Notes: generated by a model not told the origin, from the sequence alone. A DNA stretch of 62,513 bases from an uncultured Planctomycetales bacterium (GCA_964428315.1 CAYRXT010000013.1:1-62513), one strand, 5' to 3'. Numbered from the stretch's first letter, positions 1-62,513 are shown. A program made the numbers and translations.

Positions 1-220
1 CCGAATTCCGAATTTCAGACGGATCAGAAAAGTTTTTGTCATTGCGAGCGACCAAAGGGAGCGAAGCAATCTCATAAAGATTATTCTGACAAAGATTGCT
101 TCGGCGCTCCTTGCCGTCGCTTCTCGCAAAGACGGAGAGGGTGTACGGTCTAAGGATTCGATATTCAGGATTGGGAATTTATTCGGGATTTGGGATTTGG
201 CATTGGGAATTTTGAAATCC
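1..220 (+). repeat. Palindromic interspersed repeat (PR element), copy 1, truncated by window edge
   Basis: Matches 1681-1900 almost base for base. It contains the hairpin GTCATTGCGAGCGACCAAAGGGAGCGAAGCAATC...GATTGCTTCGGCGCTCCTTGCCGTCGCTTCTCGC. The ends are inverted: CCGAATTCCGAAT vs ATTCGGGATTTGGGATTCGG. Confidence 0.9.
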
Positions 221-9200: not shown

Positions 9201-12200
9201 CGCCTTCCATGGCCGCTTCCAGGAAACGGTTATCCTGGGGATCTTCTTTGATGACGGTTAATGTCCTGCGCGGTCTGACCGCCACGGCCTGGATATGGAT
9301 TGTTTCGATGAGTCTGGCGGCGATGTCGCGGGTGATGACGGGATGGAACTTCGGTCTTGACAGGACGTCGATGAGTTCTTTGAGCGTGGCCGGCGATATG
9401 ATGAGCTTGAACCTGTTGTTTTTTAACGCTGAGATGATCTTTCGGTTTGTGGAATCTTTGAGCAGGCCGGAGATGAACACGTTTGTGTCAATGACGGCTT
9501 TAAGCATGGTTCTCGCGGCAGGCCTTTATTTCTTCGGCAATGTCCTCGCTGGAGACGGGGAAGCGTTTCAGCCTCCGGTCGATGTCACTCAAAATGCCGC
9601 TCCAGCGCCGGCGGAGGGTCTTCCGTTCAAGGTTGCGGAGAAGTCTGAGTTTCTGCGTAACCGGAAGGCGGTCAATCATCTTTTCGATCTGCTGTATTTT
9701 AAGGTCAAGGCTTATTTTGATCATTTCGGGTGCCTCCGTGTGTTTATTAAGCAATATAGCATACAGCCCGGGAATAGGCAAGACAAGGGACGCCGTCGCG
9801 TCTTCTGGGCGGCGAGGAAGCTGTGGGCGGCGGTGGCGATAGCGGCGTTCATGTTTACGGCCTCGCCGTGTCTGGCCGGCGTTATCATGCCGCAGAAACA
9901 GCAGGGGGTGTGGGAAGGCCGGGTGCAGGGGATGATTATGATAATCCTGGGATTGTTATGGATTTATAATATTTGGAAAAAGTGGATAAGAGAACGCAAG
10001 ATTTTGGAGAAGATGCAAGAAGCGGACGATGATTCGGATTTTGACGTGATGTCCGCCTTCTCCGGCGCCGAGGCGCTCCTCGCCCTCCTCGCGGCGGCGA
10101 GGAGGCTGTGGGCGGCGGGCCTGAAGCTGGTCGGGAAGAAATCACAAATGACAAATGCCAAATGCCGAATAAATGTCAAATTCCGAATTCCGAATTTTGA
10201 ACGGGATCGCAAAGACGGAGAGGGTGTACGGTCTAAGGATTTGATATTCAGGATTGGGAATTTATTCGGGATTTGGGATTCGGTATTGGGGATTTTGAAA
10301 TCCGCCGCCGGAGTGGCGAAAAACTTCGGCGTCCTCGCGCGGGACTTCCTGACATTCTTCCGCCGGCTGAAGACCTCGCCGCCTGAGTGGACCGGACAAT
10401 TCCCCATCCCTCCGCTGGGTTGCCTTGCCGTCGCCTGTCCTTCCGCGGCCGGACTCAACTCTATCACAGGCTATTGGCCCTGGGCGGCCGGCATCCTGCT
10501 GTGGCTGGCCATCCGCCGGGCTGTTTTGCGTAACCGCATTCCCTCCTTCCTTGTCACCAACCGTACCGAGAGGCTAGAGGCCGTGGCGGCTGTTCGGTCA
10601 GCCATCAGAGAAGAGATCCCCGTTGGCGGATGGCAGACGGCTCCCCTCAGCTATCTGCAGTATATCGAGTGGCTTTTGTCGAGGCTTCCCGAAGAGCGGA
10701 AAAATATTGAAGGCATCCGGATTATCCCATGGTATCTGAGCTTTGGGTTTCTTACCGGCCGTTTGGGAGGATTTTCGAAGAAGTCAAACGTGTTGACGGT
10801 CGTGTATCTTCCTTTCGGGAAAGTGTTCAAGAGGATTTGGGACCACGAGACAATCCATGTCCTGCTGGAGCATAATACGGAAGGCCGCGAGGAATTTACG
10901 GAGCACTGCTGGCATAATGTGGACCGCAGTAACCTGCGGACAGTTTTGAAGCTCGGCCTTGAGGCCTTAGCCTCATTTATTATTAACGTGGCAGCCCAAA
11001 CCTTATTGCTTTCAGCCGTTTTGGCGCTCGAAGCGACAAAGGCGCTGAGTCTTGCCTTTTTGGGGTATGCTGTCGTGTTCCTGTTCACGGATACATTATT
11101 GTTCCGTTTTCTGCTCCTGCTGTTCAATCAAAAAATCGAGGAGGTGAAGATGGGAGAGTCAGCGCATATGGTGAGCCTTTACGCGTTGACAAACCCCGAC
11201 GAGGATGGAGCGGAAACCGGAGCCAGTATCCTGGCTGGAGAGACAGGCGTGTTGACGGAGGGGCCTCTTTTCGATAAAGCGGAAACACTCAAACAAAAAG
11301 TCATTAAGGACGAAGATTTGTGCGCCCTGATGGAAGGGGCGAGACGTTTTGCGCATTCGGCCGTTTCCTATACCCTGACGGTCCGCTCCGCGCTCGTTGC
11401 CAGCTTTCTGGGCCATGCGTGGGTCATTACTTTCCTGGCGGCGGGGATGGATTCGGATTTTCACTGGATCACGCTGAAAGCGGCGCTGTACGCCGCGTTG
11501 GTCATGGGCTTTGCGATACATGCTTCCCGGTTCCGATCCCGTTTTGGGATCAACAGCCGCCTGGCGGGCGTAGTGAGGATTTGGCATGACGCCATGCGGC
11601 CGGTTGCTTTCATCGCGGTTTTACTTAATCTGTTTATTTCCAGCCCTGTGGAAATGAAGATCAGGGAATATCTTTCAGAAAAGTTGAGCAGTGATCCGAA
11701 TTATTATATCAATTTGAGGATCCCGGGGCACGAGACGGAAAGGCCGGCTCGATTGATCCTGACGGACTGGCGGATGACTCCCGAAGACGCGTCAAGGGTT
11801 GAGATTGAACCGGAAGAATTCCGTGAGGAGGCCTCAGAGAAGCCGGCGCGTCAGGCCGCGCCGCAGCGCGCGGGCTGTTACAGGTTTGAGTGGCCGCGCA
11901 GTTATAATGTTGGCGGCAGATATATTCCGGATCCTTTTGCCAAGGACAGTTCGGATTTTGCGGAAGCGGGCTTTGCCGTGACCCTCATGGAATTCGGACC
12001 GGAGGACGACAACCTATGGCCTCCTCCTTACGGGAAGGCGGTCCTGCTGGACGATTTGTCTGAGTTCGAGGGAATACGGATCTCAGTCGAGAAAGCGGAT
12101 CCCGGTACAATAGAGTTGATTTTTACTCTTGTGGTGTATTGTAACGAAAGGGGCACCAGATATAGGTTTGCTGAAATTGTGCTGCCCTTAACATTGTCCG

Positions 12201-15200
12201 GCGAGGACAACCAGGTCCTGTATGTCCCCGTGGAAAGCCTGCCTAATTGCAAATGGAATTACGGTATAAAACTTTATTATTTGCAGTTCTTTTTCAGTCC
12301 GGCCGGCCAGACGCCCATCAGGGCCAGGATTAAAGAGATCGAGTTTGTGCCCAAGGCGGGGACGGCTTGCTCGGAGAGCCGCCCGATATCGTCTCAACCG
12401 GGTGTGTCAGAAGCGGAGACCGGAAAAGAAAACGCGTCCGCCCTTTACGCCGGCTTCGGGTTTGGGTGGATCAAGAAACTGTGGGCGGCGGTGGCGATAG
12501 CGGCGTTCATGTTTACGGCCTCGCCGTGTCTGGCCGGCGTTATCATGCCGCAGAAACAGCAGGGGATGTGGGAAGGCCGGGTGCAGGGGATGATTATGAC
12601 AATCCTGGGATTGTTATGGATTTATAATATTTGGAAAAAGCGGATAAGAGAACGCAAGATTTTGGAGAAGATGCAAGAAGCGGTCGATGATTCGGATTCA
12701 GGCTTGATGTCCGCCTTCTCCGACGCCGAGGCGCTCCTCGCCCTCCTCGCGGCGGCGAGGAGGATGCGGGCAAAAGTCTTGTCATTGCGGGGAGCCGCCG
12801 GGACATTGTCGCGCGAGATCGCCGTCACTGCGAGCGACCAAAGGGAGCGAAGCAATCTTTGTCAGAATGTAATTAATGTAATGAATGAGATTGCTTCGCT
12901 CTTCCGGACTCGCAATGACAGAAAGATTAATAAGCTGCTGTCCAGATTCTTGTCATTGCGAGCGACCAGCGGGAGCGAAGCAATCCCTGCTATTGTGAAG
13001 GCTTCTTCCCCTACGATTCGGCATTTGTCTGGCGCTTGGGATTCGGTATCGGGGATTTTGAAATCCGTGATGGCAGTTCACTTTATCGGGAGGCTGCCGG
13101 GCGCTTTGTTAACCTCTATCCGTGGCTGGTGGAGACAAAGACCGCGTAAACCGATAGCCTCCTTCCACTTTATTAGGTCAGGAGGGTGCGAAAGCTCGCA
13201 GTATTCGGATGCGTATTATGCTTCTTCTTTTGGACTGCTGGAATTCCTGCAATCGGCAAGTGGGCTCTTGCATATGGCACGTGTTGTTATTCAACGACTT
13301 GGCGGGGAAGAGAATCGGGTGACAATGGATCATGTCCATTATACAAGTAATGATGTGCAAAAAATTGATGAGCTGGCGGCTCATTTTAAAGAGAAAAATG
13401 CGGCCTGTACTGTACGGTATTGGAAGCAAGGAGGAAAGGCCGTCAGGGTTATGAGTCTTGAGAAGCCTTTGCAGCACGGTTCAGAACTTGGGGTGAAGAC
13501 GGTGATGATAACAACCCTGGACGGCGGGGAGGCGTGTGGAACGGAAGGGGGTTCATGGCAGGCCGGATTTTATTACAGGGGAAAGGCCGGGGATCTGAAA
13601 TTGCCGGAACCGTGGGGGGGTGTCGCTTATAAGGGATCGTCGTATGAGGTGAAAAGGAGAAATCCTTATGCGATTGAGGTGGAGAGCGGGGCAGACTTGT
13701 TCGTTATCAGAAGCCTGCCGCTGTGCGGAAAAGAGAAAGAAATCAAATTGATCAAGGCTCACATGGGCATGGTCAGGAAGATTGCTGCTAGTTCTGGCGG
13801 GAAAAAAAGAGCGGGCTTCAACGAGCTTGTTGCCGCGGGAAATTTGGGGCTGACAGAGGCCGCAAAAGCATTCGCCGTGGAAATAGGAGTTCAGTTTTAC
13901 ACATTCGCAGTCAGACGAATAAAGGGTGCAATAACAGATTATCTGAGAGCCCTAAGCTGTGGGAAAAGGAAGAGTCATGAATGGGTAACAAAGGACCTTA
14001 ACCCCTTTATAGAGCAGTTTGCCCAGGAGAACAGCCGGTTGCCGACGGAACAGGAGATCCTGGAAGGCTTGGGATGCACCGAAGCAGAGTCGCGCTACAG
14101 GATTGAAACCAGTTCTTTTCAATGGCCTAGTTTGCAGGATTCCTTTAGGAATAGCAAAGGCGAGGAATGCAGATCAATAACAATGGCGGATCGCATTCCT
14201 GACGGGTCTGTCGAATCACCCCTGGCTCACATGATTCATAAGGAGGATATGCGAAGAATTTGGAAAGCTTTTAAAGAAGTGGGAGGCAGGCAATGGAAGA
14301 GAAACAAGGAAATATTTATAATGTATTTTTACGACGGCCTCCCGTGTTGGGAAATCGCAGATTATTTTGGGCTAACAGAATCTGCGATCTCTTTGATTAT
14401 TACAAAAATAATAAAAAGTCTGCGAAAAACACTGGGGCGTGAAGACAGGGACGACGATCGGCCCGGCAGTCTGGATGCGACAGCCATGAAGGATTTGGCG
14501 GCGCGGCTTCTAGAGAGCGCGCTGAGAGGCTTCGGACAACCGGACCGCACTGTTCAAGAGGAGCGGGAAGGAATAATCCTAGAGCTTTTTTCAAATGTGA
14601 AAGGTGAAAAATCGAAAAGAGCCTTGATGATCATGAAAATGTTATATTTAGACGAATTACCACCGAAGCAAATCGCAAATCATTTTGAACTGACAACAGC
14701 CTGTATCAATGAGATTCGGGAGCGAATGATAGATGGAATAGAGATGGAAATATGGCGCCGGGAAGACAATAACGAGGAGGCCCAGAGTTTGACAGGACTA
14801 TTCCCCGTTACCGGCGACGGGCTGGCGCTCGCCATGGCCGCGGCGGTCATTCTCCTGGCGCGGCTGGTGTACGGTGTGCGCGCGGCCGGGAGATCCGCCG
14901 CGCTGGCGTACGGCATGGATGTCTTTGTCAAGGCGGTCAACGCGTTCAGCCTGCGCGGGGCGGACAGAGAAAGACTGGCCCGCGCGCGCGTCCTGGTCTT
15001 GGCCGGCGGCAGCGGCGCGGGGCGCTCCCATATCATCAGTCTTCTGATCCGGAACGGGAACGCCGGCCGCGGCAGGGAGGCCCGGCACCTGAGGCTCGTC
15101 ACCAGTCGGCCGGCCAGGAGCAGTGGAGATGACAAGGAATGCGTGTCCATGTTCCGTTTCCTTAGGATGATGTTCGGCGGAAAGCTTGTGGACGTTCGGT

Positions 15201-18200
15201 TCCATTGGGAAGAGCTGGCCTTCTACGCGTTCAGGAAAGACGCCATCCTCCGGGACGGCGAGGATGAGACCGTCTGGCTCGCGGACGTACTGAGGTTCGA
15301 AAGCTTCCTCAAACTCCAAAAGATCTTCCCGGACATCGCGCTGGTCTACATCTCTCCGTTGCCCGTCGAAGAGCTGGAAGACGGCACGGCGGCGCTGGAG
15401 GCCGAGCTGACCCGGCGGCTCAGGGCCAGAAACGGCGGCATGACAGAGGAAAAGATCAGGCGCAGGGTCCGTCTGAGCACGGTTGAGTATCACAAGTTTA
15501 TGCGGCATATGGATGAAAACAGCGGTGGCGTTATCTTCATCAACACGATCCCCGGCCCGGGCGGATGGACGATGAAGAGAAAGATAGCTGATTTTCAATA
15601 TTCATTTCCCGCGGCTGTCCGGCCTCCTGCGCCACTGCCCAACGGGCCGGAGGCTTCAATGACCCGGGACGGGCCCAATGCCGGGACACATCCGGCGAAA
15701 AGATGGGTGCGGGAGCCCGGCACCACCGGATTTCATGAAGGCCACGATCCCTTGGCCCATCATTGGCAGACTGCAAACAATAACTATATAGGTTTGAACC
15801 ATGCTTTTGACGCCGTGAATGGCAATGACGATAGAACTCCCGCCGGGGGGGGGATTGATCCTCTTGAGGGCGTCCGGATGATCCGGGCGGCGTTGCAAAA
15901 TCAGTATGGGGATGCGTCTCGGCGGGACGCCGCCCGCCCGGACGGTCTTCACAGCCTCCTCTTCTGGGGCGGGATGCTGGCGACCGGGGTCTTCTTCTAC
16001 CGGCTGGTCCGCTCTTCGCTGTTAAAGGACTCCCTGCTTGCAGGGCGAGTTCTCACTCCGACGGTATCGCTGGCCGGGCTGGCCGACCGGTTGTTATTCA
16101 GGAAGATCTGGAAAAAGTTCGGTGAAGGCAGCGCCTTCGTGGCGACCTTGAACACGTTCCGCAGGATACCAAGGCTCGGGCTCTTCCTTTTGGTCATCTC
16201 GGTCACCGTCGCGCTGGTGGGGAGCGCGCTTTCGGAGAGAAAGAAGAGATCTGTCCCCCTGCAACCTTCCGAGAAGGTTGAGCCCGCGCGGAGCGCCGGC
16301 ACGGCGCTGAGGAGCGTTGATGCGCTGAGCGGGATTATATTTATTGGATTAGCGGCTGTGACCGTGCTCATGGCCTGGTTCATTTCGATGTGGGAAGACT
16401 GGAAGCCGGCCCGGAATCGAGCGGTGAAGTATGCGCGCGTTACGGCAGGGTACGTGGTCATTATCGGTCTGGGCGCGTGGCTGACGGATAACTTGTTGGT
16501 GATGTTACTATTCAGTTCCATCGGGTATGGATTTTTATATACATGCTTCAGTGAATCGGGAGACCGTGGAGCAAATGACAGAAAGGTTTACACAATTTCC
16601 GATTTGATATTTGGGATTGGGAATTTGTCCGGTGCCCGGGATTGGTTTTTTGGGATTTTGAAACCCGCCTTGAGGCCCCTGAGGCGGATGGTCCCGGCTT
16701 TGAGCTCCCGCGTCGCGGCGGTGTTGGCGTTCCTGACGTCCTTCTTCTTCAGCAGTGGCCTGCTGGCGGCCGGAAAGCAGGCCGCGCGGTCTTCCGGCCT
16801 GGAAGGCCTGGTGATCCTGCTGGCGCTGGGCGTGGTCGCGCTGGGGATGTGCCGGTATCATGCGGCAAAACATGAAGAGGCGCCGGGCCTCTCCGACGCC
16901 GGCGAAATCATGCGCCGCTGGCTTTACGGACGGGAAGACCTCCTCGCGCTTGCCGGCGGTGACCCTGAGACCGCCGAGGAGGTCCTCAAGACCATCGAAC
17001 TGCTTACTGCCGAAGCGTCCGCGGCCGGAAAGAATATCCACCGGCAGGACGAAGAAGGGTTCACGGGAGGCCGGGACCGGTTCAGCGATGATTTGCAAAA
17101 CCGGGGTGTTTCCCATGGAGAACTGCTCGCGCTCATGGAGTCTCTCAGGGAGAAGGCGGGCCGGGCCGCCGCAACCGGGGTGGAGTTGAAGGAGGAGGCG
17201 GACCTTGTGCGGTGCGGCCAGGAGGCGCGGACCGGCGTTTCCATGGCGAAATGGATCGGATGGGCGACTATTGCCGCCGGGCTCGTCGGACTGTTCGGCC
17301 GGCTGGCGCTGACCGGAGTGGTGGAAGCCGGCATCTCCTGGCTGGCCGGCGGCATAATTGTGGCCGGGGCGGCCACAATTCTCCTGGACCTGGTTGTCCT
17401 GGGGTGGGACGGTTTCGTTGAGAGCCTGAAGGAAGAGAGGGCCGCAGAAGATGTCGGGGCGCGCCGGACAGCCCGGCTCCTGAAACGGGCATGGCTGACC
17501 GCCGGTATTATATTCCTGGCCTTTCTGGCGGCGGCGGCCCTGACGGTGCCGGGGCTGTTCGGGGAAGCGATGGCGGGTGCGGCCGTCCAGAAGGCGGCCC
17601 TTTCGTCGGGCATCCTGGGGCTTATCAGCATCGCCGTGGGCCTGGGATACGGGAAGGCCGAAGAAGGCTCGTTCCAGATGAACCTGCGTTCGGGGCGGTT
17701 GTTCCGGTTCTTCATGTTCGCCTTGGCGGCGTTCATGGCCGGGTCCATGGCGGTGGACGCGGCACAGGCCTTTGCCGCGGGCCCGGCGCCGGACGCGGAC
17801 GGCGGCGCGGATGGTGACGGGGGGCTGTCCCCGTCAGGGGACCCCTCCGAAGGAGGAGCTGTGTCTCCGGCAGAAGGCGTAGTGCCGGCTGTGGACCGTC
17901 CTCAGCCGGACACGCCGCGGGAGGAGGGGCCGGAAGAAATGGCGCTGACGGATGCCCCTGCGAAAGAGCCGGTCTCCGTTGTTACGCAGGAGACGCGGGT
18001 GAATCCGGCGCGGGATCCGGAAAAGGCGTCCGCTCCGGACGGTACCAAAGGCACAGTCATATCCGCCGGAGATGACGGCGGGGATTCCTTCCTGTCGCGC
18101 GCGCGGGATTTTGCCGCGAAGGTCTGGGACGGCGTTTCTTTTGTGGGCACTGCCGCGGCGGCCGAATCCTCCCCGGCGGCCGGGCCGCCTTCGCCGCCTT

Positions 18201-21200
18201 CGTCGCCTTCGCCGCCTTCGCCGCCTTCGCCGCCGAAGAGGCCGCGGGATAAACCGACGGACGCTGCCGTTGCTGTGGAAGCGTCCGGCTTCTGGGCCGC
18301 TGTGGCCGCGGACAGTGTTTACACGCCGGAGGACGTCGCGGCGATGGCGCGCGCGACCGACAGCCTGTCTCGCGCCAAGGGCATCCCGGACAGCGATGAC
18401 TTTAAAAGACTTCTGGCGCCGGCCCTGCGGACGGCCGCGACCGCGCGGGATTCGCTGGAGGCGGTCAGGGCGCTGTTCATTCCGCGGGGAGCGGGGGCAT
18501 TCAGATTTCCGGACGAAGAGGTCCTTATTGCGCGGTCTTTTGCCGCGCCGCTGGCCGCGACAGACAGCCTGCGAAGGATCTTGAGCGGAGAACAAGGGCC
18601 GGAAGGGGTCATGAAATTTCTGGGCGAAGGCTGTATTTTAACCGTGTCTTACGCCGGGGCGGGCCTGTCGCGCGTAATGGCGGAGACCGTGTTTGAAACA
18701 AGGGTCATGGTTCTTCCGGGGCATAAATGTCTTTTCGTGAGCCTGCCCGGAGAAGAAGAGGGCTTTGTCTTTGACAGCGCGCTGCTGACAACCGGCCCGG
18801 TCTTCCGGCTGGCACAGTACACGGAGAAGAAAGGGGAGACCTATTATTTCAAAGAGGCGTTTTATGCCGATGTCATGCCCCGGGGATGGGCCGCCTACAA
18901 GGAGAATTTTACGAAATTCCGGCTGGGCCGCGTTGAGAAATTCGCGGCAGGCCTTTTATACAATATCGGCCGTTATTACGACGATCATTATGACTTTGCC
19001 GCGGGGGCGGATTATTTCAGGCGCGCGGCGGCGGTTGATCCGTCGGACACCGAGGCGTGGCATTTGCTGGGCGAAAGCTATCTGGAATTAGGAGAGCTTG
19101 GGCACGCGGTCGCATCCTTCAGGCGGGCCTTCGCGGCGGATCCGCTCCTGCTGGAGAGCTGGCATAACCGCGGAACCATGTTCTATCTTTCTGAGAATTA
19201 TGATAAAGCCGCGAAATATTTCCTGGTTGTTTCGTCGGTGGCCCCGAAGACCACCGGCCTCTGGTCCTCCCTGCTGGCCGGCGGCGTTTACACGCCGGAG
19301 GACGTCGCGGCGATGGCGCGCGTGACCGACAGCCTGTCTCGCGCCAAGGGCATCCCGGACGCGGATGACTTCAAAAGACTCCTGGCGCCGGCCCTGCGGA
19401 CGGCCGCGACCGCGCGGGATTCGCTGGAGGCGGTCCGGAGTGGCTTCGCGTCCCGGGGCCTCGAGCAGAGGCTCGGCGCCTACAACACCGGCGAACACAT
19501 GTCCCTCTTAAAGACCTTCGCCCTTCCGCTGGTCCGGGACGACAGCCTCCGGGCGTTGCTGGCGGACCCGGCCCGGACGGACGAGATAATACAGTACACA
19601 GGCGAGGGCTGTGCCCTGGACATGCCTTACGCGGGCATCACGCTGAAACGTTTTCTGGAAGGCACCGGATTCGAGGTCAGGAAGATGAAACTGCCGGGGC
19701 ATGTCTGTCTGTATGTCATCCTCGGCAAGGATTACGGCTTTATCTTTGACAGCTTTCACCGGACGTTCAGCCCGCCTTTCCGTCTGGAGCAGTACACGGA
19801 ACGCAGAGGAGAGGGGCCGGTTTATTATTTCAAAGAGGCGTTTTACGCCGATGTCATGCCCCCGCGCTGGAAGCCCTTTAAAGACGAGCTGATCAAATTC
19901 ACCCTCAGCGATCCCGGGACGTTTCCCGGGGACATGCTGGGGAACCTGGGCGTCGGCTATTATGCGGACAAAAATTATGAAGTGTCGCTGGAATATTTCG
20001 CGGCGGCTTCGGCCCTCGATACGGCCGAAATGGTTTACGCGCGCGGGACGGCCGACGCGTATTATGCGATGAAGGAAAACAAGCAAGCGGAGTATTACTA
20101 CCGCAGGACGCTGGAACTGGACCCCGATAACCTGGGGGCGTTGTACACCATCGGGGTGATGTTCGAGGAAGCGCGTGAATATGAACAGGCGGCGGCATTC
20201 CTTTCAAGGGCCCTGGACCAGGACTCCACGGACGCGGACGTGCTCGAATACCTGGGGCGCGCCTGCTATTACCTGGATCAGGATACACTGGCGGCCGGAT
20301 ACCTTGAGAGGGCCCTCGCCGAGGATCCCGCGGACGCGGACGTCCTCAAGTATCTGGGCATGACGTATTATTATATGGATAGAAACGCGGAGGCGGCGGG
20401 GCTTCTGGAGAGGGCCGCTGCCGCCGACCCCGCGAGTTCCCTGATCCGCAGGTTCCTCGGGCTGTCCTATTTCTATCTGGACCGGCCGGCGGAGGCGGTC
20501 ATCCGGCTGAAGCAAGCCCTGGACATGGTCCCCGGCGACGTTGAGGCCCTGACCTATCTGGGGCACGCGTATCTGGAGATGGATGAATACGAAAAGGCGG
20601 CGGATTATTTCGGGAAAGCCCTGGGGATAAACCCCGGCGACAAAGACTTGCAGGAATACTGGATCGAGGCCCGGGGGAAAATGAACGAGGATGGCTGGGC
20701 CGCGCCCGGTTCCGCGGATTCTTCCGGGACGAATAACCCGCGGGATTCGTCAGACACCCGGCCCTATTCGCTCCTCACCGTGCCGGAAGGCTGGGATGGC
20801 GGCGGGCGGACCTTCCGTTCGGCCGTGGTCCGGCGGGACGGGCGCTATGTCATCCAGGAAGAGGATCCGGCCGGGCTCTTCGCGGACATCCAGGCGGCGC
20901 TGGACCAGCTGCCCCATCTCTGGCCCCGGGACGTGCGCGGCCCGCCGGAGAGGTTCGAACTTGTGCTCACCGCCGACCGCCGGAAGCTGGGGACCGACCC
21001 CGAAACCGGCCTGACCTGCGCCGCATCCTCCGATACTGTCCGCGACACCGTTTATGTCCACCCGTACCTCAGGGACATCCTGCACGACACCGGAAGAGAG
21101 CTGAAAAACAACGAGAGTTTACGCGAACTGTACTTCCTGTTTTCCGGCCATATCGGTGTCAGTCATATTTACTACGACATATTTACCGAGAATCTCCTGA

Positions 21201-30200: not shown

Positions 30201-33200
30201 TCGACAACGGCCGTTATGTGCCCGGTCATCCACAATATAATTTTGAAAAAAATGTCGTGTATGCCGGCAGCGAACAATGGACCGATTATGATTACAGGGT
30301 GACGACGGGAGGTCACGACAGTCTGATGGCGGGCCTGATCTTCCGGGACGGCGACGTCCGTCATTACAGGTTGATTTACGTAAAGAGGCCGGCGTCTTCT
30401 TTCGGGCTTTTGAGGTTGTATCAGGGAGAGCATGGATGGCCGACCTGCATAATTTTGAAAGACGCGGTGGTCCCCCCTTGCGGGGACGCGCCGGTTGAAT
30501 TGCGCGTTGTCTGCCGGGATTCCCATATCGTGGCGGGGCTCGACGGAAAGGTCTTTATTGATGTCACCGACGACTGGTCCCCGCGGGGGAACATCGGGTT
30601 GATTAATGTGGGTGATCCTTCCGGGGTATGGTTTGATTCCGTTCGCGTTACCGGTTTTGATGACGGGGCCGCTTCCGCCTTTCCTGATCTGCCGGACAAT
30701 GTGTTTGTCGGGGAAGGGCTTCCCTTTACAATGGACCTGTTTTCTCCCGGGGAATGGCAAGCCAGGTTCCTGGCCGTGGCGGAGGTGGATGCGCCCCTGC
30801 CGGGAGACCTAACCCGGGAAGAAGACAGAATAGCGTGGATCCCGCCCTATACGACCGTCGACTCCGGAGAAACAGAAGGATATCCGTTAAAGGTGCGGTT
30901 CAAAGATCGGCAGACCGGACAGGTCTTAAAACAGGAGACGGTCACGGTTACCGTCGGGGATGTCCCGCGTCAGGCCGCGTCCTTTAAAAATTTCTTGATA
31001 TCCGCCTACAGTTTTCATTTGGAGAGTCCCTATTCCTGCGATCTGGGGCTTAACGTCTGGCACCCCTATGACGCGCGGGACGCCGAACAGATGTTAAAAG
31101 AGGCCAAGGCACTCGGGGTCAAAATCATTATGGGAGGATTTCACTATGACGGCCGATGGATTGCCTGGCATGATGTTTTAACGGTTTATGCTTTGCAGGG
31201 CGTGAAAGGATTAAGGCAGATCGCCCGGCAGACTTTGAGTCGTCTTAATGAACTGGACGCGCTTTCGGAGGTGTTTGCCTTTTATCTGGTGGACGAACCG
31301 GTTTACCGTACCGATAAAGAGAGGGAAGCGGCGCGGATTCTTAACTCCTTCTTGAAAGAATGCGACCCGCAGCGGCCGGGCATTGTTTCTATGGGCGGCT
31401 ACTTGTACAGGACGCACGGCGATCTTGCTTTTGACGACCTGAATCTGAATTATTACTGGAGCAATACGTATCCGGTTTTTGCCGTCACTCAGACAGAAGA
31501 TCATTTTCAGGAAAGGTTAGATATTTACATCATTTCTTTGGAATACGATCAGAAAAGGGCTTCTGAGGCCGGCGTGTTCTTTATGGCCGGCGTGCAGGCG
31601 CACGAATGGGCGCGTTTGCAGCAGGCGCTCAGACAGACGACACCCGGAGAGATGCGTGTTCTGGTCTGGCTGGCGCTTGCTTACGGCGCCAAGGGTATCT
31701 CTTATTTTGCCTATGATTTGAGTCCGCATTATAACGCCCTTTTAGGATTGGACGGAAACCCGACGGAATGTTATTACGAGGCGCAGGATTTGAATTGTAA
31801 TGTTCTTAAACCTCTGGGTTCTGTGTTGATGAAACTGCGATGGACCGGGGCCTGGCATGTCCGCGGGCACAAGAATCTTTCCGGAGAAATGCCGTACGTG
31901 AATACTATAACCGGTACGGACGCGAATATCCAGGTCTCTTCGTTCAAGCATGCCGATGACGGGTCTTATTATATTATGCTGGTTAACAGAAATCCTGATG
32001 AAGTAACGGATGTGACCGTAACCTTTAATTCTTCCGCAGATTTTGTCTGTTTGCAGGATGTCCTTACCGCGCAGCAGATATCGCTTTCGGGGCAAAGGGC
32101 CGAAATTCATCTTGAACCGGGTTCGGGAAGGCTGCTGAAGACGCCGCTTTTTGTCATACCGGTGGAGAAAGTGGAGAAAAAAGACGACGAAGGTGAACTG
32201 CGTTTTCAGCTGCTTCAGAATTTCCCCAACCCCTTTGACGGGTCGACGAAGATCCGCTACACGCTGGAGAAGGCCGGGCGGGTCACCGTCGAGGTTTACA
32301 ACCTGCTGGGGCGCAGCGTCCGCGCCCTGGCGCAGGGCCGTCAGGCCGCCGGGGAACACGCGGTGACGTGGGACGGCCGGGACGACGCCGGGAACGAGGT
32401 CGCGGCCGGCGTGTACCTGTATGTCCTGAAGGTCGACGGCAGGGTTGTCGGCAAAAAGAAGCTGCTCCTCCTCTCGTGCGGGGAGGGGGACAGCGCGGGA
32501 CCCGACATATCCTATGCCGGCGTGAACCTCGCCGGCGTCACGGGCTTCTTTGGCAGGGCCAAGGAGGCGATTGTTAATGTGGGGGCCAAGCTCTGGGATG
32601 CAATCGACTCCAAGGCCATGGCGGAATCTTCTCTGAGGACGGTGACCTCCAAAGGCCCTTCAGGAAAGGTCGTCCCTTGCCCAAGGTTAAAGGAGGCGGT
32701 TCATTATCCACATCAAGATACGATCATTCATGAAGCCGAATATTCTTTACAGAGAAATAACCCCCTGGATTCTTATGTGGTCAGCCGGACCGTCGTCAAT
32801 CAAAAAGAAAGAAGTTATGAGCCCGGCGTGATCGCGGTTAAATTAACCCCTTCCCCCGCCGCTACTCATTACACGACGGCCCAGCCGGTCCGAAATCGTT
32901 TCCCCTCGTCACAAAGAATAGAAACACTTAACAGGACATTCGCCTTGAGCGATCCGCGGCCCTTTTTCTCGAAGGTCATCAGGGAACACATCGCTGGCAG
33001 GAGAGCGGACCGTTCATTGAGGAAAGGCAACGCTGGTCCGGCCCCCTCCGCGCACGATTTGTCGTTATGGTACATGATTGAAGTTCGGCCCGGAGAGGAA
33101 CGGGAGGCTGTCCGCCAGTACGCCGGGGCTCGAGCGATCGAACGCGCCCAGCTGATTCACAGGCACACGCGTTTTTCTCATCTGCCTTACGACACTTATG

Positions 33201-36200
33201 TCAATCCGACGGGAGACGGCGTGACATGGAGCGGGGGAGTGTTCGCGAGAATCGAATTGGAGCTGGAAGATTCATGGTGGGCCAAACGGGGAAAGGTTTT
33301 TGAGGCCAGAGAGTATTTGAGGAATAGAGGCCTGCTCGATGGTTCCCAGACAAAGATTCCCCTTGGCTTTGTCGATACGGGAATTGATCCCGACCATCCC
33401 GATCTTGAAGGAAAAGTCAGGTTTAATCCGGATGAAATTCCCGATAACGGTCTGGATGACGACGGAAACGGTTATATTGATGATTTCTGGGGATTTGATT
33501 TTAAAGGGGGAACATTTAATTCTGGAACCGGGCTTTGGATCAATGACCGGGACGGACCATACGACCTTAGCGGACACGGGACCATGACGGCTGGGATTGC
33601 GGCGGCCATTAACAACAACGCGGAAGGCATTGCCGGGATTGCGGATGGTCTTGTCGAAATTGTCGTGGCCAGGGCCCTGGGGGGAGACGGGGCGACCGAC
33701 ATTATTTTATCCAACGCGCTCATGTATCTTGCCATTCGGGGAGCGCGCATTATTAACAACAGCTGGGGGCCCGCTCAACCTGTCGCGTCGAATCCTCTGA
33801 TCGAAGACGTTATCAAGACGCTCACTTATGATTATGGAATCATGGTGTTCTTTGCCGCCGGCAACAGCGGGGTCAATGTCGAGTACGTTTCTCCGATGAA
33901 TCTGGGCGAAACTTACAGCATTACGGCGACCAATCCTTTTGATCAGTGGGAGCCGTGGTCGCCTTTTGGACACGGGCCGAACTACGGACCGTTGAACGAC
34001 CTGGCCGCTCCGGGATACAAAATCCTTTCCACCGTTCCTCCTGACGCGCGCAATCTTAATCCGTGGCAGAAGGTGCCTTATGGCAGTATGCCCGGGCTGT
34101 ATTATTGGGATAACGGAACTTCCTATTCCTCTCCCATGCCGGCCGCCGCGGCCGCGCTTGTCATAACGGCTAATCCGGAATTAAACAAGCCCACGGTTCT
34201 TAACAACATGACGATTGGTCAGATCCTTATTGATACGGCCGATTCCCTTGACGGCGAAAACTACGCCGGCACCGGGATCATCAATATGCTTAAGGCTGTC
34301 AAAAAAGATCCCGGGTCAGTTCTTCCCGCGAGAATCACGTGCCCCGGGCCGGGAGAGGTCGTTTCAGGACCGCTCGAGCTGACCGGGACAGCGGCAGGAG
34401 ACCTTTTTGAAAGCTACAGCTTATATGTTAACACCGGAGACTCATGGGAGATGATCGGCCAGACGCAAAGGGATCCCGTGGTCAACGGAGCGCTGCTTGG
34501 CTGGGACTCGGGCATGCTTTCCGACGGACGCTATCCCCTGAAGCTTGTCGTGAAAGGCGGGGACGGAAATCACAGTGAGCATCAGACGGTCTTGCAGATT
34601 CAGAACAATTATATCAGTTATCCTCAAGCGGAAGATATCTTCAACAGAAAAGATAAAATTATTATCCGGGGAAAGGTTTCTCCGGTCGATTTTGTATCTT
34701 ACAGGATTGAATATAAAGAGACGAATCAGAACGGCTGGAAGACGGAAGGGATGGTCTTACTCGATGGAGGAACGGCTGCGCCGGGCGATGATCGTCTGGC
34801 CGAATGGGATATTTCCCGCATACCCTTTGGATTATATACCCTTCGCATGAGTGTCGTCACCCGCGATGATTTAGGAACGGAGGTCGAGACGGTTATCAAG
34901 GTCCCGAGGGTGTTGATTGAAACGGCAGATGAAATACCGTCTCAGGCGGGCTGGCCCAAAAGCACGCCGACTCAATTCATGACCGCCGCCGACATAAACA
35001 ACGACGGCTATAATGAGATTCTATTCTATTCGACAGATAAGGGGAGAGGAAACGGCATTCACATGTACCTCCACGACGGCAGACCGGTGCCGGGATGGTT
35101 TGATGCGCAGGGCCGGCCCGTCCACCGCGTTGGTGCTATTCCCAAGTTTGCCGTGGGCGATGTCAACGGAGATCAGAGAGTCGAAGTGGTCGGATTTTCG
35201 GTCCATGACAGCCTTTTTGTCTTTAACGCAGAAGGAGCCCTGCTGGACAAAAAGTTCGTGGGGCCGGGTCAACGATCGAATATGCCTCACGCGGCGGCCG
35301 TCTTGACGGATCAGACCGGAGACGGAATTTTGGATATTGTTATTGCCTCGGTTGATGCCAAGCTTTATACCTTCCAGTGTATCGGTAATACGATCCAGGA
35401 GCCCTGGACTCATCTGTCGCTGCCATATGCCGAGCTTCAAGCAGCGACTCCGGCCGTGGGGAATCTGGACAACGAAGGCCTGGAAGAAATTGTTCTCAGG
35501 CCGCATAACGGACGGATTTTTGTGGTGCGCCGGGACACAATTGTGACCTCGAACGCCCAGGCCGGCCATGGAGCCGCAGCTTCGCCTGTCTTGGCCGATC
35601 TGGATAATGACGGAAAGCCAGAAATAATTCTTCCTTTAGGGCTTGAAGGCAACGGCGGGGTTATCGTTTATCAGTCTATGGACGATAAATTGCACACTAT
35701 GCCGGGATGGCCTCAATACACAAATGATCCGGGGCACACGTACACGAACGAGATTTATGCGCATCCGGCCGTCGGTTTGATCAACAGCGATCAGCATCCG
35801 GATATTCTCTGCGTTTCTTTATTTAATGAACTCTACGGTTGGAGTCATGAGGGTTACCGGATCTGGGAGGATCCTCTTCAAATCAACGGATTGGGAGGGA
35901 CGCGGGATAATCCCGGCGCTTCTTATTATAACACGCCCCTGGTGGGCGATCTTGACGGGGACAGCGTCCCGGATATCGTCGTTGGAGTAAATAATGACCT
36001 TTATATCTTCAGCTGGGTTCCGCGGGAAGGGGCGAGAGTGTCTTACGTCTTCCACCTCGAGAATTCGGGATCTTTCTTCTATGGAGGGATTATCGATGAT
36101 ATCGACAAAGACGGGGATACCGATCTTCTCATCAGCGCTATGGACGGCGTGTACGCCTGGGATTTTCCCGGCGCGTATAATCCTGAGACAGTTCACTGGG

Positions 36201-39200
36201 GGGAGTGGCGCAACGGCCCGAGAAATACAGGCCTTTACAGAGCCCCCGACTTACCGACACATGTTGTTCCGGAACAATCGGCTCCGCAAACATTCGCTCT
36301 TTCGCAGAATTATCCCAATCCGTTTAGTCTTTCCACAACCATCCGGTATAACGTTGCCGAGCCGGGCCCAGTGCGGCTGGTGGTTTATAACATTAACGGG
36401 CGGAAGGTTCGGACATTGGTCGATGAGTTACAGGAAGCCGGCACGAAGAGCGTGGCGTGGGACGGCCGGGACGACGCCGGGAACGAGGTCGCGGCCGGCG
36501 TTTACCTGTATGTCCTGAAGGTCGACGGCAGGGTTGTCGGCAAAAAGAAGCTGCTCCTCCTCGCGTGCGGGGAGGGGGGGGATGATGAGGATCCTCTGAC
36601 GCAAGGCCGGGAGAAACCGGCGGCGCGGTTTGCGTCTCCCGGAGGGATCGCGTGCATAGGCGTCTCGGTGCGGATGATGCTGTTGCGGCTGGCAAACAGC
36701 GGCAGGCTTAACGTTTTTGACGCGAAGCCGGCTAATGGGGAAAATGGGGGCCGTCCCTATTTATCCCATTTATCAGGGCCGGTTGCTCTGAACAAAAAGA
36801 GAACGTCAGCTTTTAAGGAGTTGGATGAAATCTTCGGCAGGGATCCCGGCGCCTTTGAGGATAGCCTGGAAGGTTCCCGTTTTAATGATTTTCGATCCGT
36901 GGAGAGGGATGACGCATCTGCGCCGGAGGTCGCTTTTATGCCGCATGACGACATGAGAGCCTTTTTGACGGAGGATAATGAAGCCGGCCCTGCCCAGGCA
37001 CGCGACGATCTGTTTACCGGAAACCCGCGGCAGGCGGGTCATACGGAGACCTCGACGTCTTCCACCATGACATCGATGTCTGCGGACGGGACAGGAAGCC
37101 CGTCCATGCGAAGAGATTCGACATACAGCGCTATGGCTTCCTTGATATTGGCCAGGCCTTCGGCAACGGTCTCGCCCTGGCTTGCGCAGCCGGACAGCGA
37201 GGGAACAAAGAGGCTGTATCCGCCTTCAGGATCTTTCTCGATAACAACCTTGAATCGTTTGACCATTTTTTCACCTCCGTTAAAAAATATACTACGATTG
37301 TCCGGGGAAGTCAATTCATACACTTCTCAGACACGGATAGTCCATTCGGGAAACAGGGGCCGCCCCTGTATAGCTTGCGACGCGTCGGAGAAAGACCTGT
37401 CGCCGGAGGCGTTGGCGGGGTACGTGGATTATTTCGGCGGGATCGGGGAATTCACGCCCGTCGAGGATATCTATGGACGGCTGGAGGTCCGGGAGGCCCT
37501 GTCCGCCGCCGGCCTCTTCGCCGGCGACGCGCGGGCGCGCCTGCGGGGGAAGGGCGTGCGGTTCGTGCGTCCGCCTTCAAGCTGGAACCTGAAGTGGGAA
37601 TACGGCGCGGCGGTCTATGTCGAAAATGAAAACGACATTTACATCATCCTTCCGGAGGGTACGTCCTCGCTGGTCATCGCCCACGAGATCTGGGCCGCCC
37701 TTAATCTTGATTCCGGACACGAAGACAATCCCTTTGTCATCAAAGAGCCGGGATTCCGGAAGACGCTGGTCTCGATGCTCCCGTGGGTGAAACCCGATCC
37801 CCTTGACGGCGTTGAGATCGTCAACGACTACACGCGCAAACTCATAGAAGAGAAAAGGGACTACGGCCGGGCGCTCGGGGTCTCGCTCCCGGCCTACGAA
37901 CGGTCGCAGGACGAAAAGGTCCTGCGCCTCCTCATCCCCGCGCTGGTCTTGACCAACAATATCTCGGAGGCCGAAAGCCTCTACCTGCGCGCTGCGCCCG
38001 AGGACCGGGCCGAGGTCATCGATAACCTGGCCCGCGCCCTTGTCTGGTCAGTGACCGACTACAAGAGGGGATATGAGTTAATGGCCCTTTTCCTCGCGAC
38101 GGGGGATTCGCCCGCGTCTTACATGCGTTTCATGGGCCGATTTATGAAGACGTTTTTTATCCGGTATTTCAACGGGCCGGCTCACGACGTCCATTTGGAG
38201 AATCTCGCGGCGTTTAAGGCGGGCCGGCTCCCCGCGGCGCTGACACGGGACTACGGTCCGGTCGGATCCTTCCGGGAGGGCTTCGACCCCGGCGTCTTTC
38301 CGGAGATGACGTTCGCCGTGCCCGCGGACATCGGTTCCATGAACGCGCTGGGCAGGGCCCTGTTCGCGGCGGTCCGGGACGACGCCCGGCCTCGCAAGTT
38401 CGTACGGATCGACGGCCAGGAGGGGCTGGAACTCTCCATCCTGGAAGACGACCGGGTCCATGCCGAGATGTACGGCCGCATCCACGCCTTCCTGGAAGAC
38501 GCCCGGTATCACGGTACTATCGTACAGGGCAAACACCTGCCGACGGCCCTGAACGGCAGCCGCAGATTCCTCGGCAACGATTTCCGGGGCGAGGACCTGG
38601 CCGCCTATTTCAACAAGGCGGCCGCAGACACGGTGCCCCTCGATGCGTATGAGAGGTTCCTGCTGGATTATCTTCTGAATGAAAGAGGCGTCCTGGCCCT
38701 GAACGATGACGGCGCGTACGAAAGCCGCAAGAAGTATTTCCTCGCCACGGTCTGCATGGACGGGTTTTACAAGGATTACATGAAGGAGCATCTCTTCGGC
38801 CATGAACTGCGGCATTACATGCTTTACATGTCTCCCTCTTACGAAAAAGACCTGTGGGCTGTCTGGAAAGAGGACCTCAAGGAGGAAGAAAGGGAGGTGG
38901 TGGAAGACTTCTTCCACGGCCGGGGCTACGACAAGGGTAACGGGTGGCTGATGGTCAAGGAGCTCCCGGCGTGGATCTACCATCCGGATTTTATGAAGGC
39001 GACCAAGATCCGGCCTCAGGTGGTCGAAAAACTCAAGGAGAGGGAGGACGCCGCCTTCAGGGAGATCTTTCTTAGCCGGCATGGCTCCAGCGGCGAAGAG
39101 ATGTTTGGCGAGGCCACCCGGCCGCGCGCGCGCGAAGGTTCGGCTCTCCCCGTCATCGCCGGGCCGAAGCACTGCGTCGTCAATGCGGTCTTCATGGCGG

Positions 39201-42200
39201 TGAACCTGATCCGGTCGGCGCTGTCCCGGGGAAATAGTGAAAACGGGGACGGAACCTGTTTATCGAAATCCTCCAACTTCAGCGCCGCCGAGATGGACGA
39301 GGTAGCGCGGATGCTGGAGGAGGGTGACAAGGAGGCGGCGGCGCGCGCCTGGAAGTACGCTTCGATGATGCGGGCGCTGGAGCATCAGACAGGCGGCAAG
39401 GTGATCGAGCTGGAAGGGAACCTTATTTCCTGCAATCCGCAATTAAGCACGCCCGGCGGAGGGGCCTTTGACGTGAAGAAGATCCTCGCGGTCCTGGAGG
39501 TGAGCCCGGATTACACTATTACCAGCCGCACATATCAGGATGTTCATAACCTGATCGCCGCGCTTTATGTGATTAAAAGGCTCGAGTATTATGACAAAAC
39601 AAAAGACAAACTTGCGCATGCCCGGGATGTTATCGGCTCGTGGGATGAGCTCTGGGCGCCGCTGATTGCCGGGCGGATATATTCGCCGGCGCAAGTCGCT
39701 GACATCCTGCGCGCGACCGCGCGTTTATCCCGGCTTAGGGGCGTGCCCGGCAGCGAAGAGGCGAGAAGTGTGCTGTTCCGGGCCCTGCAAACGGCGCCGA
39801 CGGCAGAGGATTCAGTGGAGACGGTGCGACGGTTATTCACGGGATGGGATTTGAAGCGTAAACTTCAACTGGCCTTGTCGTCGATGCGGGAGGTTGCGCG
39901 CGAACTGGAATTGTTCAGTATGGATTTATGGGGACCTGAACGCAAGGTGAAAGCGGTTTTGTTTTCGGCCTGGGCTTTCAGTCATAGATCGTCGCGGTCT
40001 CTGCTTTTTTCGTGGGATCTCGAGGAGAAGCTCGGGCTTGAAAATGACAGCCAATACCTGCTCCTGTCACATATTTTCGCTGCGCCGCTGGCCTCGGAGA
40101 CTTCTTTGCGCCAGATATTTGAGGGAGCCCGGGGCAAAGACGCGGCCGAAGAAATCCTGGGACAGGGATGTGTTCTCGCTATGCCTTATGCGGGAATCGT
40201 TCTTTGCCGTTTCCTTGGGGCCTTTGATATTGTCATCAAACTGATGCGGCTTCAGACGCACTGCTGTTTGATGGTTATGAAGGATGGATATGCTTTTATT
40301 TTTGACAGCGGTTATTCGACGGCCAGCCGGTCTTTCCGGTTAGAGGACTATACGGAAAGGGACGGTGAAACTTACCATTTTAAAGAGGCGTTTTTCCGCG
40401 ACGTCTGTCCCGAGGGGTGGAAACACACACATTTTAAATGGTTTAAATTGTACGATATTTACGGGTTCCCCGGATTTATACAAAACAATATAGATCTCAA
40501 TATATATAAAACAAAAACAGAAACAGAAACAAAAACAAAAACAGGTGACAGTCACCAAACAGGTGACAGTCACCGTCCGGGGACAGGGATGACCGGGCCC
40601 GGCGAGGCCACCCGGCCGCGCGCGCGCGAAGGTTCGGCTCTCCCCGTCATCGCCGGGCCGAAGCACTGCGTCGTCAATGCGGTCTTCATGGCGGTGAACC
40701 TGATCCGGTCGGCGCTGTCCCGGGGAAATAGTGAAAACGGGGACGGAACCTGTTTATCAGTTTTGAACAGCCGCCTTCTCTTTGGTGATGCGTTGCGAAA
40801 TCCATTTCTGCGGGAGTTCTCCGGGGGAGAGGCCGGCCTTGCAGGCCAGCTTGTCAAGGATCCTGATCTGCCGGGGCTTAAGGTCGAGGACGATGTGTTT
40901 GGGGCGGGGGGGCCGCGCATTTCTTGCGGGCCTGATGTCCTCCGGGAAATCCGTTATGCTGTGGGTATCCCAGAAGGCCCGCTCTTCACGGACAGATTTG
41001 AATTCCGGGGTTTTTCCGGTCTTTTTCATCCCTCTTTATATTTTGTGGATTCTATAACGACCTTTTCTGATGACAGCCAAATGACCGGTCAGATCTTGTC
41101 GAGCCACTCGGGAAAGGAAGTCGCGGAGGAGTTCGTTGATTTCGCTGATGGTAAGCAGATGGACCCTCAGGAGAATAATCCCGCAATTAGACGGGGGAGG
41201 GTACCTGAGGATATTGCTAAAATCGGTATCTCTGGTAATGAGTATACAGGAATCACGTTGAATCCTTTCGAAAATTTCTTCATCCGTGGACTGCGGATTG
41301 ATATCCCGGATATCAACAGCATCATGCCCCATAGTTTCGCACGTACTTTTAATGGACCGGGGGCAATCGGCATCGATCAGAAATCTCATAGTTTAGGAAG
41401 GTTGTTTGATAAGTTCTTGTTCGTCAGTGAGCATTGCGGCGAACAGAAGGCAGGCATGAATATCTTCCATAGTAATGGGAGCGTATTCTCTAACAACCTC
41501 TTCGAAGGGCATCCCGCAGGCAAGAGCTTCGAGAACTACATGAACAGGTATGCGTGTGGCTTTAATACATGGCCGACCATGCTGAACCGCGGGGTCGGTA
41601 GTGATGTGTTTCTCAATAAGTCTTTTATTGACCATTTTTATCCTCTTTTAATGATTCCAAATATAACATGGAATAATAATATTGTCAATTTAGAAGGGAT
41701 TTTTGATAGAAATAAAGGTGACTGTCACCGTAACCGTAAACGGCCCTACTCTCTCCTCACCGTGCCGGAGGTGTATGGGGATAATGGAGAAGAGGGAGAC
41801 GGGGGAGAAGGGGGCCGCGGGCCGCGTCCTCCGCGGCAGGGTTCTTCTGAATCTTCATTAACGCGGCCCGCGGCCCTTGACAGCTTCACGGCCGTGTGGA
41901 ACGGGGACGCATACGGGTATGAAACAGGCAGCAGCGTCCGGCTGTACGGGGACATGGAAGACCATCTGAAACAGGCCGGGCTCCTGCTGAGCGAAAGCGG
42001 CCGCGACCCGCCGGAGCGGATCACCGTTATCATCACCGCCGACGCCGAACTCTTGGGCGTTGACCCGCGGACCGGCCGGACCTACGTCATGGCCAGCCGG
42101 ACCGATCCCGACGCACGTTTCCTCATCTTCATCCACCCCTACTATTTCACCCTGCGGGAAAACATAGACGGGGAACTCGCAAGCAACCGTAACGAGTCCC

Positions 42201-62464: not shown

Positions 62465-62513
62465 TAGTGACAAAAGTAACATGAAAGAAAAATGACAAAA
62501 AAATAGATTTTGT

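Follow-up and report, generated by a model that had tools for sequence, protein, structure and literature searches.

How can complete operons be carried on one strand of DNA while the opposite strand is read as a single uninterrupted gene? This question is raised by a stretch of 62,513 nucleotides (nt) from an uncultured Planctomycetales bacterium (GCA_964428315.1 CAYRXT010000013.1:1-62513), to which we refer, at its full length, as the window. Searches with Pfam and NCBIfam identified seven minus-strand toxin-antitoxin (TA) genes in three operons, all of which lie inside a giant plus-strand open reading frame (ORF). In a six-frame stop count of the window, the plus-strand frame with codon starts ≡ 2 mod 3 was free of stops from 2 to 62461, and each of the other five frames contained 315-919 stops. 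The three operons most probably encode compact type II TA systems, with a predicted VapB-like/PIN_3 pair, a HicB/HicA pair, and a DUF433/DUF5615 pair accompanied by a CopG-like gene. The evidence described below leads us to propose that purifying selection against nonsense codons in the giant gene very probably acts on these nested antisense cassettes.

In the codon-aligned antisense register, the codons TTA, CTA, and TCA are forbidden, which is to say that each creates a stop in the sense frame. An earlier note on this DNA had claimed that five of the minus-strand genes are codon-aligned with the giant frame and avoid these codons completely. The low coordinates of all five are indeed ≡ 2 mod 3, and our recount of their Leu and Ser codons agreed exactly (15+13+10+20+8 = 66, none of them TTA, CTA, or TCA). 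These genes, some of which the note had called only moderately GC-rich, have a GC of 0.46-0.57 and a GC at third codon positions (GC3) of 0.42-0.70. Because the absence of these codons is logically the same fact as an open giant frame, the weight of the argument rests on controls and on related loci. Within the giant ORF, TTA, CTA, and TCA account for 315 of 3272 Leu/Ser codons (9.6%), and for 6.3% in the parts that match Pfam domains. The PIN gene of cassette 1, which lies in an offset register, carries forbidden-type codons at 6 of its 26 Leu/Ser positions (23%; TTA three times and TCA three times). The earlier note had held that a usage below 2-3% would make the absence unremarkable; the backgrounds of 6.3-23% lie above that level, and the probability of 0/66 is 1.4e-2 to 4e-5, depending on the background used. 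The other two plus frames contain 19/13, 8/10, and 8/31 stops across the three cassettes. When codons were resampled synonymously, the probability of remaining open was 0.13-0.44 per gene, 2-7% per cassette, 1.3e-3 for the five aligned genes jointly, and 4e-5 for all seven.

We also examined which overlap phases would permit such nesting, by applying dynamic programming to the full set of synonymous codings of the seven TA proteins in the five possible phases. Only two of the five were permissive, namely the antisense aligned phase (0.8-2.5 expected stops per gene) and the antisense phase that we call 'off2' (0.8-2.0). The sense+1, sense+2, and antisense off1 phases gave 2.5-14 expected stops per gene and a probability of being open of at most approximately 0.05, and in these phases the stops of some genes could not be removed without changing the protein. 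Each codon forbidden in the aligned phase has synonymous alternatives, and the forbidden items in off2 are codon pairs, NNY followed by TAN and NNT followed by CAN. The seven genes of the window occupy exactly the permissive phases, with five aligned and two, PIN and hicB, in off2; these two fall outside the aligned phase because of their 8-nt and 4-nt overlaps with partner genes. Repeating the test for PIN and hicB in their offset register, as the earlier note had advised, revealed that the corresponding pairs (Y before TA and T before CA) are avoided. PIN encodes no Tyr, and all six of its His/Gln codons are preceded by C-ending codons, while the two Tyr codons of hicB are preceded by GGA and CTG.

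The same architecture recurs on other contigs. The nearest relatives of the nested TA genes lie mostly on contigs of Omnitrophota metagenome-assembled genomes (MAGs) that share it. No exact record of the DUF5615 protein of the window was found, and its homologues reach 63% identity, several of them labelled Candidatus Omnitrophica. When a DUF5615 alignment was used to scan the species representatives of GTDB, 28 loci were recovered, the majority from Omnitrophota MAGs. Of the 26 full-length hits, 15 lay inside an opposite-strand open frame, which either extended across all of the fetched sequence or measured 2.4-20.3 kb, with a GC content of 38-53%. A scan of JGI metagenomes contributed eight further nested cases, three of which were open over the full 20.3 kb. 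Pooled, the nested cases from both scans have open frames of 1-20.3 kb and 34-60% GC, the upper length being set by a limit of approximately 20 kb on the fetched loci. None of 110 DUF5615 homologues overlapped a same-strand open frame. Among 252 opposite-strand ORFs of the nested loci, the only Pfam matches were again to small TA-type families, comprising DUF433, DUF5615, HicA/HicB, PIN_3, DUF4258/DUF2283, DUF7718/DUF5647, DUF5678, Mut7-C, and small retropepsin-like proteases.

These loci provide the controls for codon usage. The giant frames of the related contigs use forbidden codons at 12-34% of Leu/Ser positions (2169/8533 pooled, 25%). Among DUF5615 genes from the GTDB loci and the window, the aligned nested copies contained 0/336 and the free-standing copies 40/195 (Fisher p = 2e-19); the corresponding counts in the JGI loci were 0/182 and 261/934, which brings the aligned nested total to 0/518. 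Homologues of the PIN, antitoxin, hicA, hicB, and DUF433 genes gave 0/118 when nested and aligned, 62/187 when nested in off2, and 30/98 when free-standing, and no nested gene among them occupied the off1 register. In the off2 DUF433 genes, all 19 Tyr codons follow codons ending in A or G and all 25 His/Gln codons follow codons that do not end in T, and His plus Gln make up 3.3% of residues, down from approximately 8%. In one Omnitrophica MAG contig of 38% GC (GCA_018821665.1; L007), a whole 8.5-kb locus is open opposite five small TA-type genes; forbidden codons amount to 0/58 in the four that are aligned and to 3/13 in the one that is offset. One could argue that TTA, CTA, and TCA are simply rare in this organism or in these TA families, such that 0/66 arises by chance or from general codon bias. 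GC3 does reach 0.63-0.70 in some of the genes, and with the lowest background, that of the Pfam-domain parts, the probability of 0/66 is only 0.014. However, the PIN gene of cassette 1 has 6/26 forbidden codons, and related genomes in which these codons are common contain none of them in the aligned nested genes, even though the rates in offset nested genes (33%) and free-standing genes (21-31%) are substantial. These register-dependent controls already contradict an explanation from codon bias, which we consider almost certainly wrong.

The features of the window are collected in the table below.

Table. Features of the window, with TA cassettes first (SD, Shine-Dalgarno sequence; aa, amino acids; E, expectation value; forbidden, TTA, CTA, or TCA).
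Feature	Coordinates	Strand	Details
Cassette 1 promoter, sigma-70-like, TTGCCT-17-TATATT with TG	9753..9781	-	consensus match only; then GGAGG SD, ATG at 9724
VapB-type antitoxin, 74 aa	9500..9724	-	NCBIfam VapB15 family E 1.3e-7, below curated cutoff; codon-aligned with giant frame; 15 Leu/Ser codons, 0 forbidden
PIN_3 / TIGR00305 toxin, 137 aa	9094..9507	-	PIN_3 E 3e-23; TIGR00305 above its cutoff
Cassette 2 promoter, sigma-70-like, TTGACT-17-TATATT	37286..37314	-	consensus match; then GGAGG SD, ATG at 37266
hicB-like antitoxin, 75 aa	37039..37266	-	HicB_lk_antitox E 3.2e-11; offset (off2) register
hicA toxin, 78 aa	36806..37042	-	HicA_toxin E 1.3e-16; ATGA overlap with hicB; codon-aligned; 13 Leu/Ser codons, 0 forbidden
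Cassette 3 promoter, sigma-70-like, TTGACA-17-TATATT with TG, 11/12 matches	41660..41688	-	consensus match; then AAGAGGA SD, ATG at 41635
DUF433 gene, 80 aa, putative antitoxin	41393..41635	-	Pfam E 9e-20; codon-aligned; 8 Leu/Ser codons, 0 forbidden
DUF5615 PIN-like gene, 117 aa, putative toxin	41036..41389	-	Pfam E 7e-21; codon-aligned; 20 Leu/Ser codons, 0 forbidden
CopG/BrnA-like antitoxin-type gene, 90 aa	40757..41029	-	Pfam CopG_antitoxin E 4.7e-5, below cutoff; codon-aligned; 10 Leu/Ser codons, 0 forbidden
Giant ORF	2..62461	+	at least 20,820 codons; then tandem stops TGA TAG TGA at 62462-62470
Degraded second copy of cassette 1	4018..4498	-	repeat families D8, D15, D17
Exact 158-nt direct repeat	39107-39264 and 40601-40758		repeat family D11; 1494 nt apart; second copy abuts stop codon of CopG-like gene

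The anatomy of each cassette corresponds to a known type of module. In cassette 1, the PIN-domain toxin gene, which occupies the off2 register, is preceded by a small antitoxin gene that it overlaps by 8 nt, as in VapBC systems, and homologues of this antitoxin occur upstream of PIN on one related contig (L013) and also on another (L023). HicA and HicB-like domains occur in adjacent genes of one operon in cassette 2, for which the hicB start was set to the ATG at 37266 from the upstream promoter and ribosome-binding signals. In cassette 3, DUF433 lies immediately upstream of DUF5615 with a gap of 3 nt, both matches exceed the Pfam cutoffs, and the pairing recurs in dozens of loci; the CopG-like gene has a nested homologue on contig L040. 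Upstream of all three operons, on their own strand, lie a sigma-70-like site recognized as a consensus match, a ribosome-binding site of the GGAGG type, and then the ATG. In the leader of cassette 3 (41636-41730), which has 27% GC, the giant frame is free of stops and the other two plus frames contain four and six. The window has 143 minus-strand ORFs that are 66 aa or longer, and Pfam matched only the seven TA components among them. Long minus-strand ORFs of 150-605 aa, considered as additional nested genes, were rejected after they failed to match Pfam; we regard them as shadow ORFs, most of which fall in the stop-poor aligned register of the GC-rich frame.

We next consider which strand is under protein-level selection. 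Pairwise comparison of 14 nested DUF5615 genes gave mean identities of 0.61 at the first, 0.73 at the second, and 0.40 at the third position of the TA codons. Position 3 of the TA codon is position 1 of the giant-frame codon, and a selected giant peptide would give the opposite order, which indicates that the TA proteins are the selected products and that nothing more than openness is maintained in the giant frame at these places. The view of the earlier note that the primary function lies on the other strand is thereby borne out. The two overlapping frames each carry a signature of selection, which consists of the codon-position identities in the TA frame and of the register-specific absence of stop-creating codons and codon pairs in the giant frame. 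It might be supposed that the TA genes are functionless, decaying passengers and that only the giant frame matters. One copy, the remnant at 4018-4498, is clearly dead, and the CopG-like and VapB-like matches fall below curated cutoffs. In contrast, the PIN_3, HicA, DUF5615, and DUF433 matches are full-length, the frames are intact with start signals, conservation extends to the promoter and SD, the codon positions vary in the manner typical of a selected protein, and 18 residues are invariant across 29 DUF5615 sequences, all of which makes decay a very improbable account of the intact cassettes.

Third positions near saturation, combined with the lack of a forbidden codon in any aligned nested lineage, point to continuing purifying selection rather than to a one-off filter only. 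Under the latter explanation, stop-free cassettes in the right phase were inserted recently and no codon-level selection followed. With a chance of being open of 2-7% per cassette, there is enough for a filter to act upon, and the cassettes of the window, whose closest homologues are at most 63% identical, could be of any age. However, third-position identity has fallen to 0.40 and yet no forbidden codon has been gained in approximately 23 contigs. Furthermore, deletions have removed 285 nt from the PIN gene and 93 nt from the antitoxin gene of the degraded copy of cassette 1; each length is a multiple of three, and the giant frame runs open through the remnant, which indicates that the frame was kept through two deletions. 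We therefore regard a filter without later selection as improbable. The earlier note had proposed that selection, or else a filter on which insertions survive, maintains an open sense frame through sequence that works mainly on the other strand; the register-dependent avoidance, the amino-acid selection on the TA frame, and the near-saturated third positions all support this proposal.

The cassettes behave as discrete units. Similarity between the giant frames of different contigs is confined to the antisense reading of the cassette, approximately 200-350 aa, and the flanks are unrelated. When 1200 aa of the giant frame spanning cassette 3 were compared exhaustively with 1.84 billion representatives using HMMER, 18 proteins matched, and 17 of these matches were limited to residues of approximately 310-518, which correspond to the cassette antisense. 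Public predicted 'proteins' of 187-1532 aa (P0058-P0075) resemble the window solely in the antisense of the DUF433/DUF5615 cassette; gene callers there took the strand of the giant frame and missed the TA genes. In DNA alignments, cassette homology starts at the -35 element of the promoter and stops at the stop codon of the toxin gene, and the -35 element, SD, and ATG are conserved at the starts of homologous cassettes on other contigs. In a neighbor-joining tree, nested copies, free-standing copies, and 'ghost' copies (described below) are interspersed. A search for terminal repeats yielded no cassette ends that were consistent across contigs, and returned only a 13-nt palindrome around cassette 3 and the 158-nt repeat. 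The palindrome, GGTGAC(A/T)GTCACC, occurs five times in the window, where 0.01 are expected (40544-40574, 41717-41729, and 58847-58877); cassette 3 is flanked by two copies on one side and one on the other, and two more copies at 58.8 kb lie within a longer hairpin. It may represent a repetitive extragenic palindromic (REP)-like element or a cassette border.

The giant ORF is open at the first full codon of the window and therefore probably continues upstream. Like giant ORFs of the Omnitrophota type (Seymour et al. 2023), it is a single ORF of more than 20 kb, and it combines multi-domain peptidase and adhesion-type content with few annotated domains. Its Pfam domains include Sigma70_r2/r4, TPR, BNR, fn3, Peptidase_S8, FG-GAP, FlgD_ig, NosD, FBPase, and RelA_SpoT, with three FlgD_ig/Por_Secre_tail-like domains, and the bulk of its 20,820 aa has no Pfam match. 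Could the frame be open for some reason other than translation? Searches with pieces of the giant ORF returned almost no homologues: no giant-ORF relatives were found in protein searches with 39266-43000 or with the FBPase-like part (52601-53650), or in the GTDB and JGI scans with 41702-43501. Moreover, large portions of the ORF are translated repeats. Nevertheless, 20,820 stop-free codons cannot be neutral when each of the other two plus frames has roughly 850 stops; every Pfam domain on the plus strand falls in the giant frame, the other plus frames lack a long ORF, all indels and repeat spacings preserve the giant frame, and peptides have been reported from Omnitrophota giant ORFs. We consider an untranslated frame highly improbable and conclude that the window in all likelihood belongs to a giant gene that resembles those of Omnitrophota and keeps a single frame open for at least 62 kb.

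Repeats in the window were also examined, and the dispersed spacings and tandem periods are all multiples of three. The detected tandem repeats have periods of 9, 66, or 132, and a 132-nt unit (44 codons) is duplicated exactly in tandem within the giant frame at 26366-26629. Window positions 1-17000 contain dispersed repeat families of 50-300 nt, all translated in the giant frame with copy spacings that are multiples of three. One of these is a G/T-rich 53-mer with eight copies (169-221, 1849-1901, 4039-4091, 5104-5156, 8950-9002, 10252-10304, 13015-13067, and 16615-16667). The dispersed repeats look like small mobile or duplicated elements that persist in one phase only. Rfam and tRNA scans of the window returned no matches.

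Domains that are typical of cytoplasmic proteins (Sigma70 r2/r4 at 13748-14428, FBPase at 52703-53542, and RelA_SpoT at 56945-57313) stand in the giant frame beside secreted-type domains (subtilase, FG-GAP, and sorting-domain-like), and one related giant frame (L021) likewise contains AA_kinase, HAD, and methyltransferase domains. This mixture suggests that giant ORFs absorb ordinary genes, and it bears on a further explanation, in which the TA operons first lay in intergenic spacers between same-strand genes and the giant ORF grew over them through stop loss and gene fusion. In addition to the mixed domains, such accretion could account for the position of hicBA: approximately 230 nt separate it from a preceding FlgD_ig/Por_Secre_tail-like domain, of a type that normally stands at the C-terminus. 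A six-gene TA island on another contig (L001 5600-8000; JGI Ga0171657_1002297) also fits: it lies between two large opposite-strand ORFs, each of its TA genes has one stop-free antisense register, and the open frame of its first cassette shares the register of the downstream large ORF, with only two stops between them. On the other hand, cassette homology is sharp-ended with flanks that are unrelated between contigs, the sorting-domain-like modules are duplicated internally together with the sequence that follows them (repeat family D13), and fusion would require each spacer to be open and in phase. Accretion is in our judgment unlikely, and it does not exclude purifying selection against nonsense codons, with which it is compatible, as the same constraint applies afterwards.

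The selection that we favor would operate as follows. A nonsense codon in the giant gene would be selected against, and a cassette would persist without splitting the ORF only in a phase where synonymous TA codons can avoid giant-frame stops, of which there are two. Insertions or fusions in other phases or orientations would split the giant ORF, which would constitute a filter on orientation and phase at establishment, and later mutations that make a forbidden codon or codon pair would be purged. The TA proteins would stay under ordinary amino-acid selection, and the giant protein would gain an arbitrary, merely stop-free peptide. We infer from the sequence that the giant ORF and the TA operons are both expressed, and the cassettes would have arrived either by insertion or through growth of the ORF over TA-bearing spacers.

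Several observations weigh against this interpretation or limit its reach. The absence of forbidden codons from the 66 positions in the window is no independent evidence by itself and cannot serve as stand-alone proof. The promoters, on which expression of the TA operons would depend, are consensus matches only. The sample of related loci was seeded with a nested cassette, and the nested fraction is therefore no unbiased frequency. No relative with an empty site was found among those searched, and insertion is not separable from ORF fusion across a TA-bearing spacer. Approximately ten 'ghost' cassettes (e.g., L001, L015, L016, L037, and L043) lack forbidden codons even though their open antisense frame spans the cassette only, which means that codon absence can outlast nesting or that these contigs carry breaks. 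Finally, a DUF433/DUF5615 cassette on contig L042 (9608-10417; JGI Ga0082335_1000276) is open only in its own aligned register and separates open stretches of 9.6 and 10 kb that share one different register. This locus is a giant frame of approximately 20 kb that has been split by a cassette with both long ORFs persisting, and the constraint is thus strong and not absolute.

The ghost cassettes, as well as the sharp borders in unrelated flanks, would also fit a reading in which the cassettes are not just passengers that the host endures: a TA lineage may have become 'ORF-compatible', with no stops on its antisense strand, and may have specialized on Omnitrophota giant genes. We advance this only tentatively and think it rather unlikely. 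Two functions may be considered under it: the cassettes may guard a huge, repeat-rich gene against deletion, or head-on transcription of the giant gene may silence the TA promoter and thereby couple toxin activation to production of the giant protein.

Purifying selection against nonsense codons in nested cassettes has consequences beyond this locus. Bacterial examples of long antisense overlap between two genuine protein genes are scarce and mostly disputed, and the loci described here offer dozens of full-length genes of known families with internal controls that are aligned, offset, or free-standing. What the overlap costs can be seen directly: three forbidden codons in the aligned register, and forbidden pairs with fewer His and Gln residues in off2. 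For giant genes, the results imply that parts need openness only and no particular peptide, which bears on the growth of giant genes and on whether their products function intact or as cleaved fragments. Annotation is affected as well: nested TA genes are overlooked wherever a gene caller settles on the giant ORF, and databases already contain 'proteins' that are nothing but TA cassettes read in antisense.

Giant ORFs of Omnitrophota have been described previously (Seymour et al. 2023 PMC10066038; West-Roberts et al. 2023 bioRxiv 10.1101/2023.11.21.568195; Nielsen & Lui 2026 bioRxiv 10.64898/2026.06.07.730766). The ORF in the window resembles them in being a single frame of tens of kb that is poorly conserved and has few annotated domains, and in its subtilase, adhesin-type, and repeat domains and many hydrophobic segments. 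Those three papers mention TA genes only as flanking genes, and the terms 'antisense', 'nested', and 'opposite strand' are absent from them. They give no description of complete opposite-strand TA operons inside the ORF, such as those of the window. A full-text search of the literature that combined giant ORFs with nested or antisense TA genes returned nothing, although its coverage of the literature is incomplete. There are precedents for giant ORFs, TA systems, antisense overlaps, and in-frame selfish elements individually, and we provisionally regard their combination as new.

TA modules are known as stabilizers of large or unstable DNA, as in superintegron cassettes and integrative elements. 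The modules described here are likewise small type II operons in large, repeat-rich, recombination-prone DNA, but they differ in their location inside a coding frame, which is the novel aspect, and a stabilizing role would be speculative here. Another parallel is provided by the palindromic elements of Rickettsia, which are reportedly mobile DNA that survives in coding genes by leaving the host frame open and being translated as an extra peptide. The cassettes of the window also keep the host frame open and would be read as extra peptide. Whereas the Rickettsia elements are short and non-coding, the units in the window are operons of 0.5-0.9 kb with their own predicted promoter, and they contain two or three opposite-strand protein genes under their own protein-level selection. 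Antisense overlapping genes of bacteria and phages, in which opposite-strand frames share the same bases, offer a third comparison. The codon-aligned antisense phase is the poorest in stops and gives rise to shadow ORFs, and the antisense overlaps reported from bacteria are mostly single, short ORFs without a family and with disputed coding status. In contrast, the genes embedded in these giant frames are full-length, belong to known families, and recur on more than 20 contigs, and the direction of constraint is measurable, with protein selection on the small gene and only stop avoidance for the large one.

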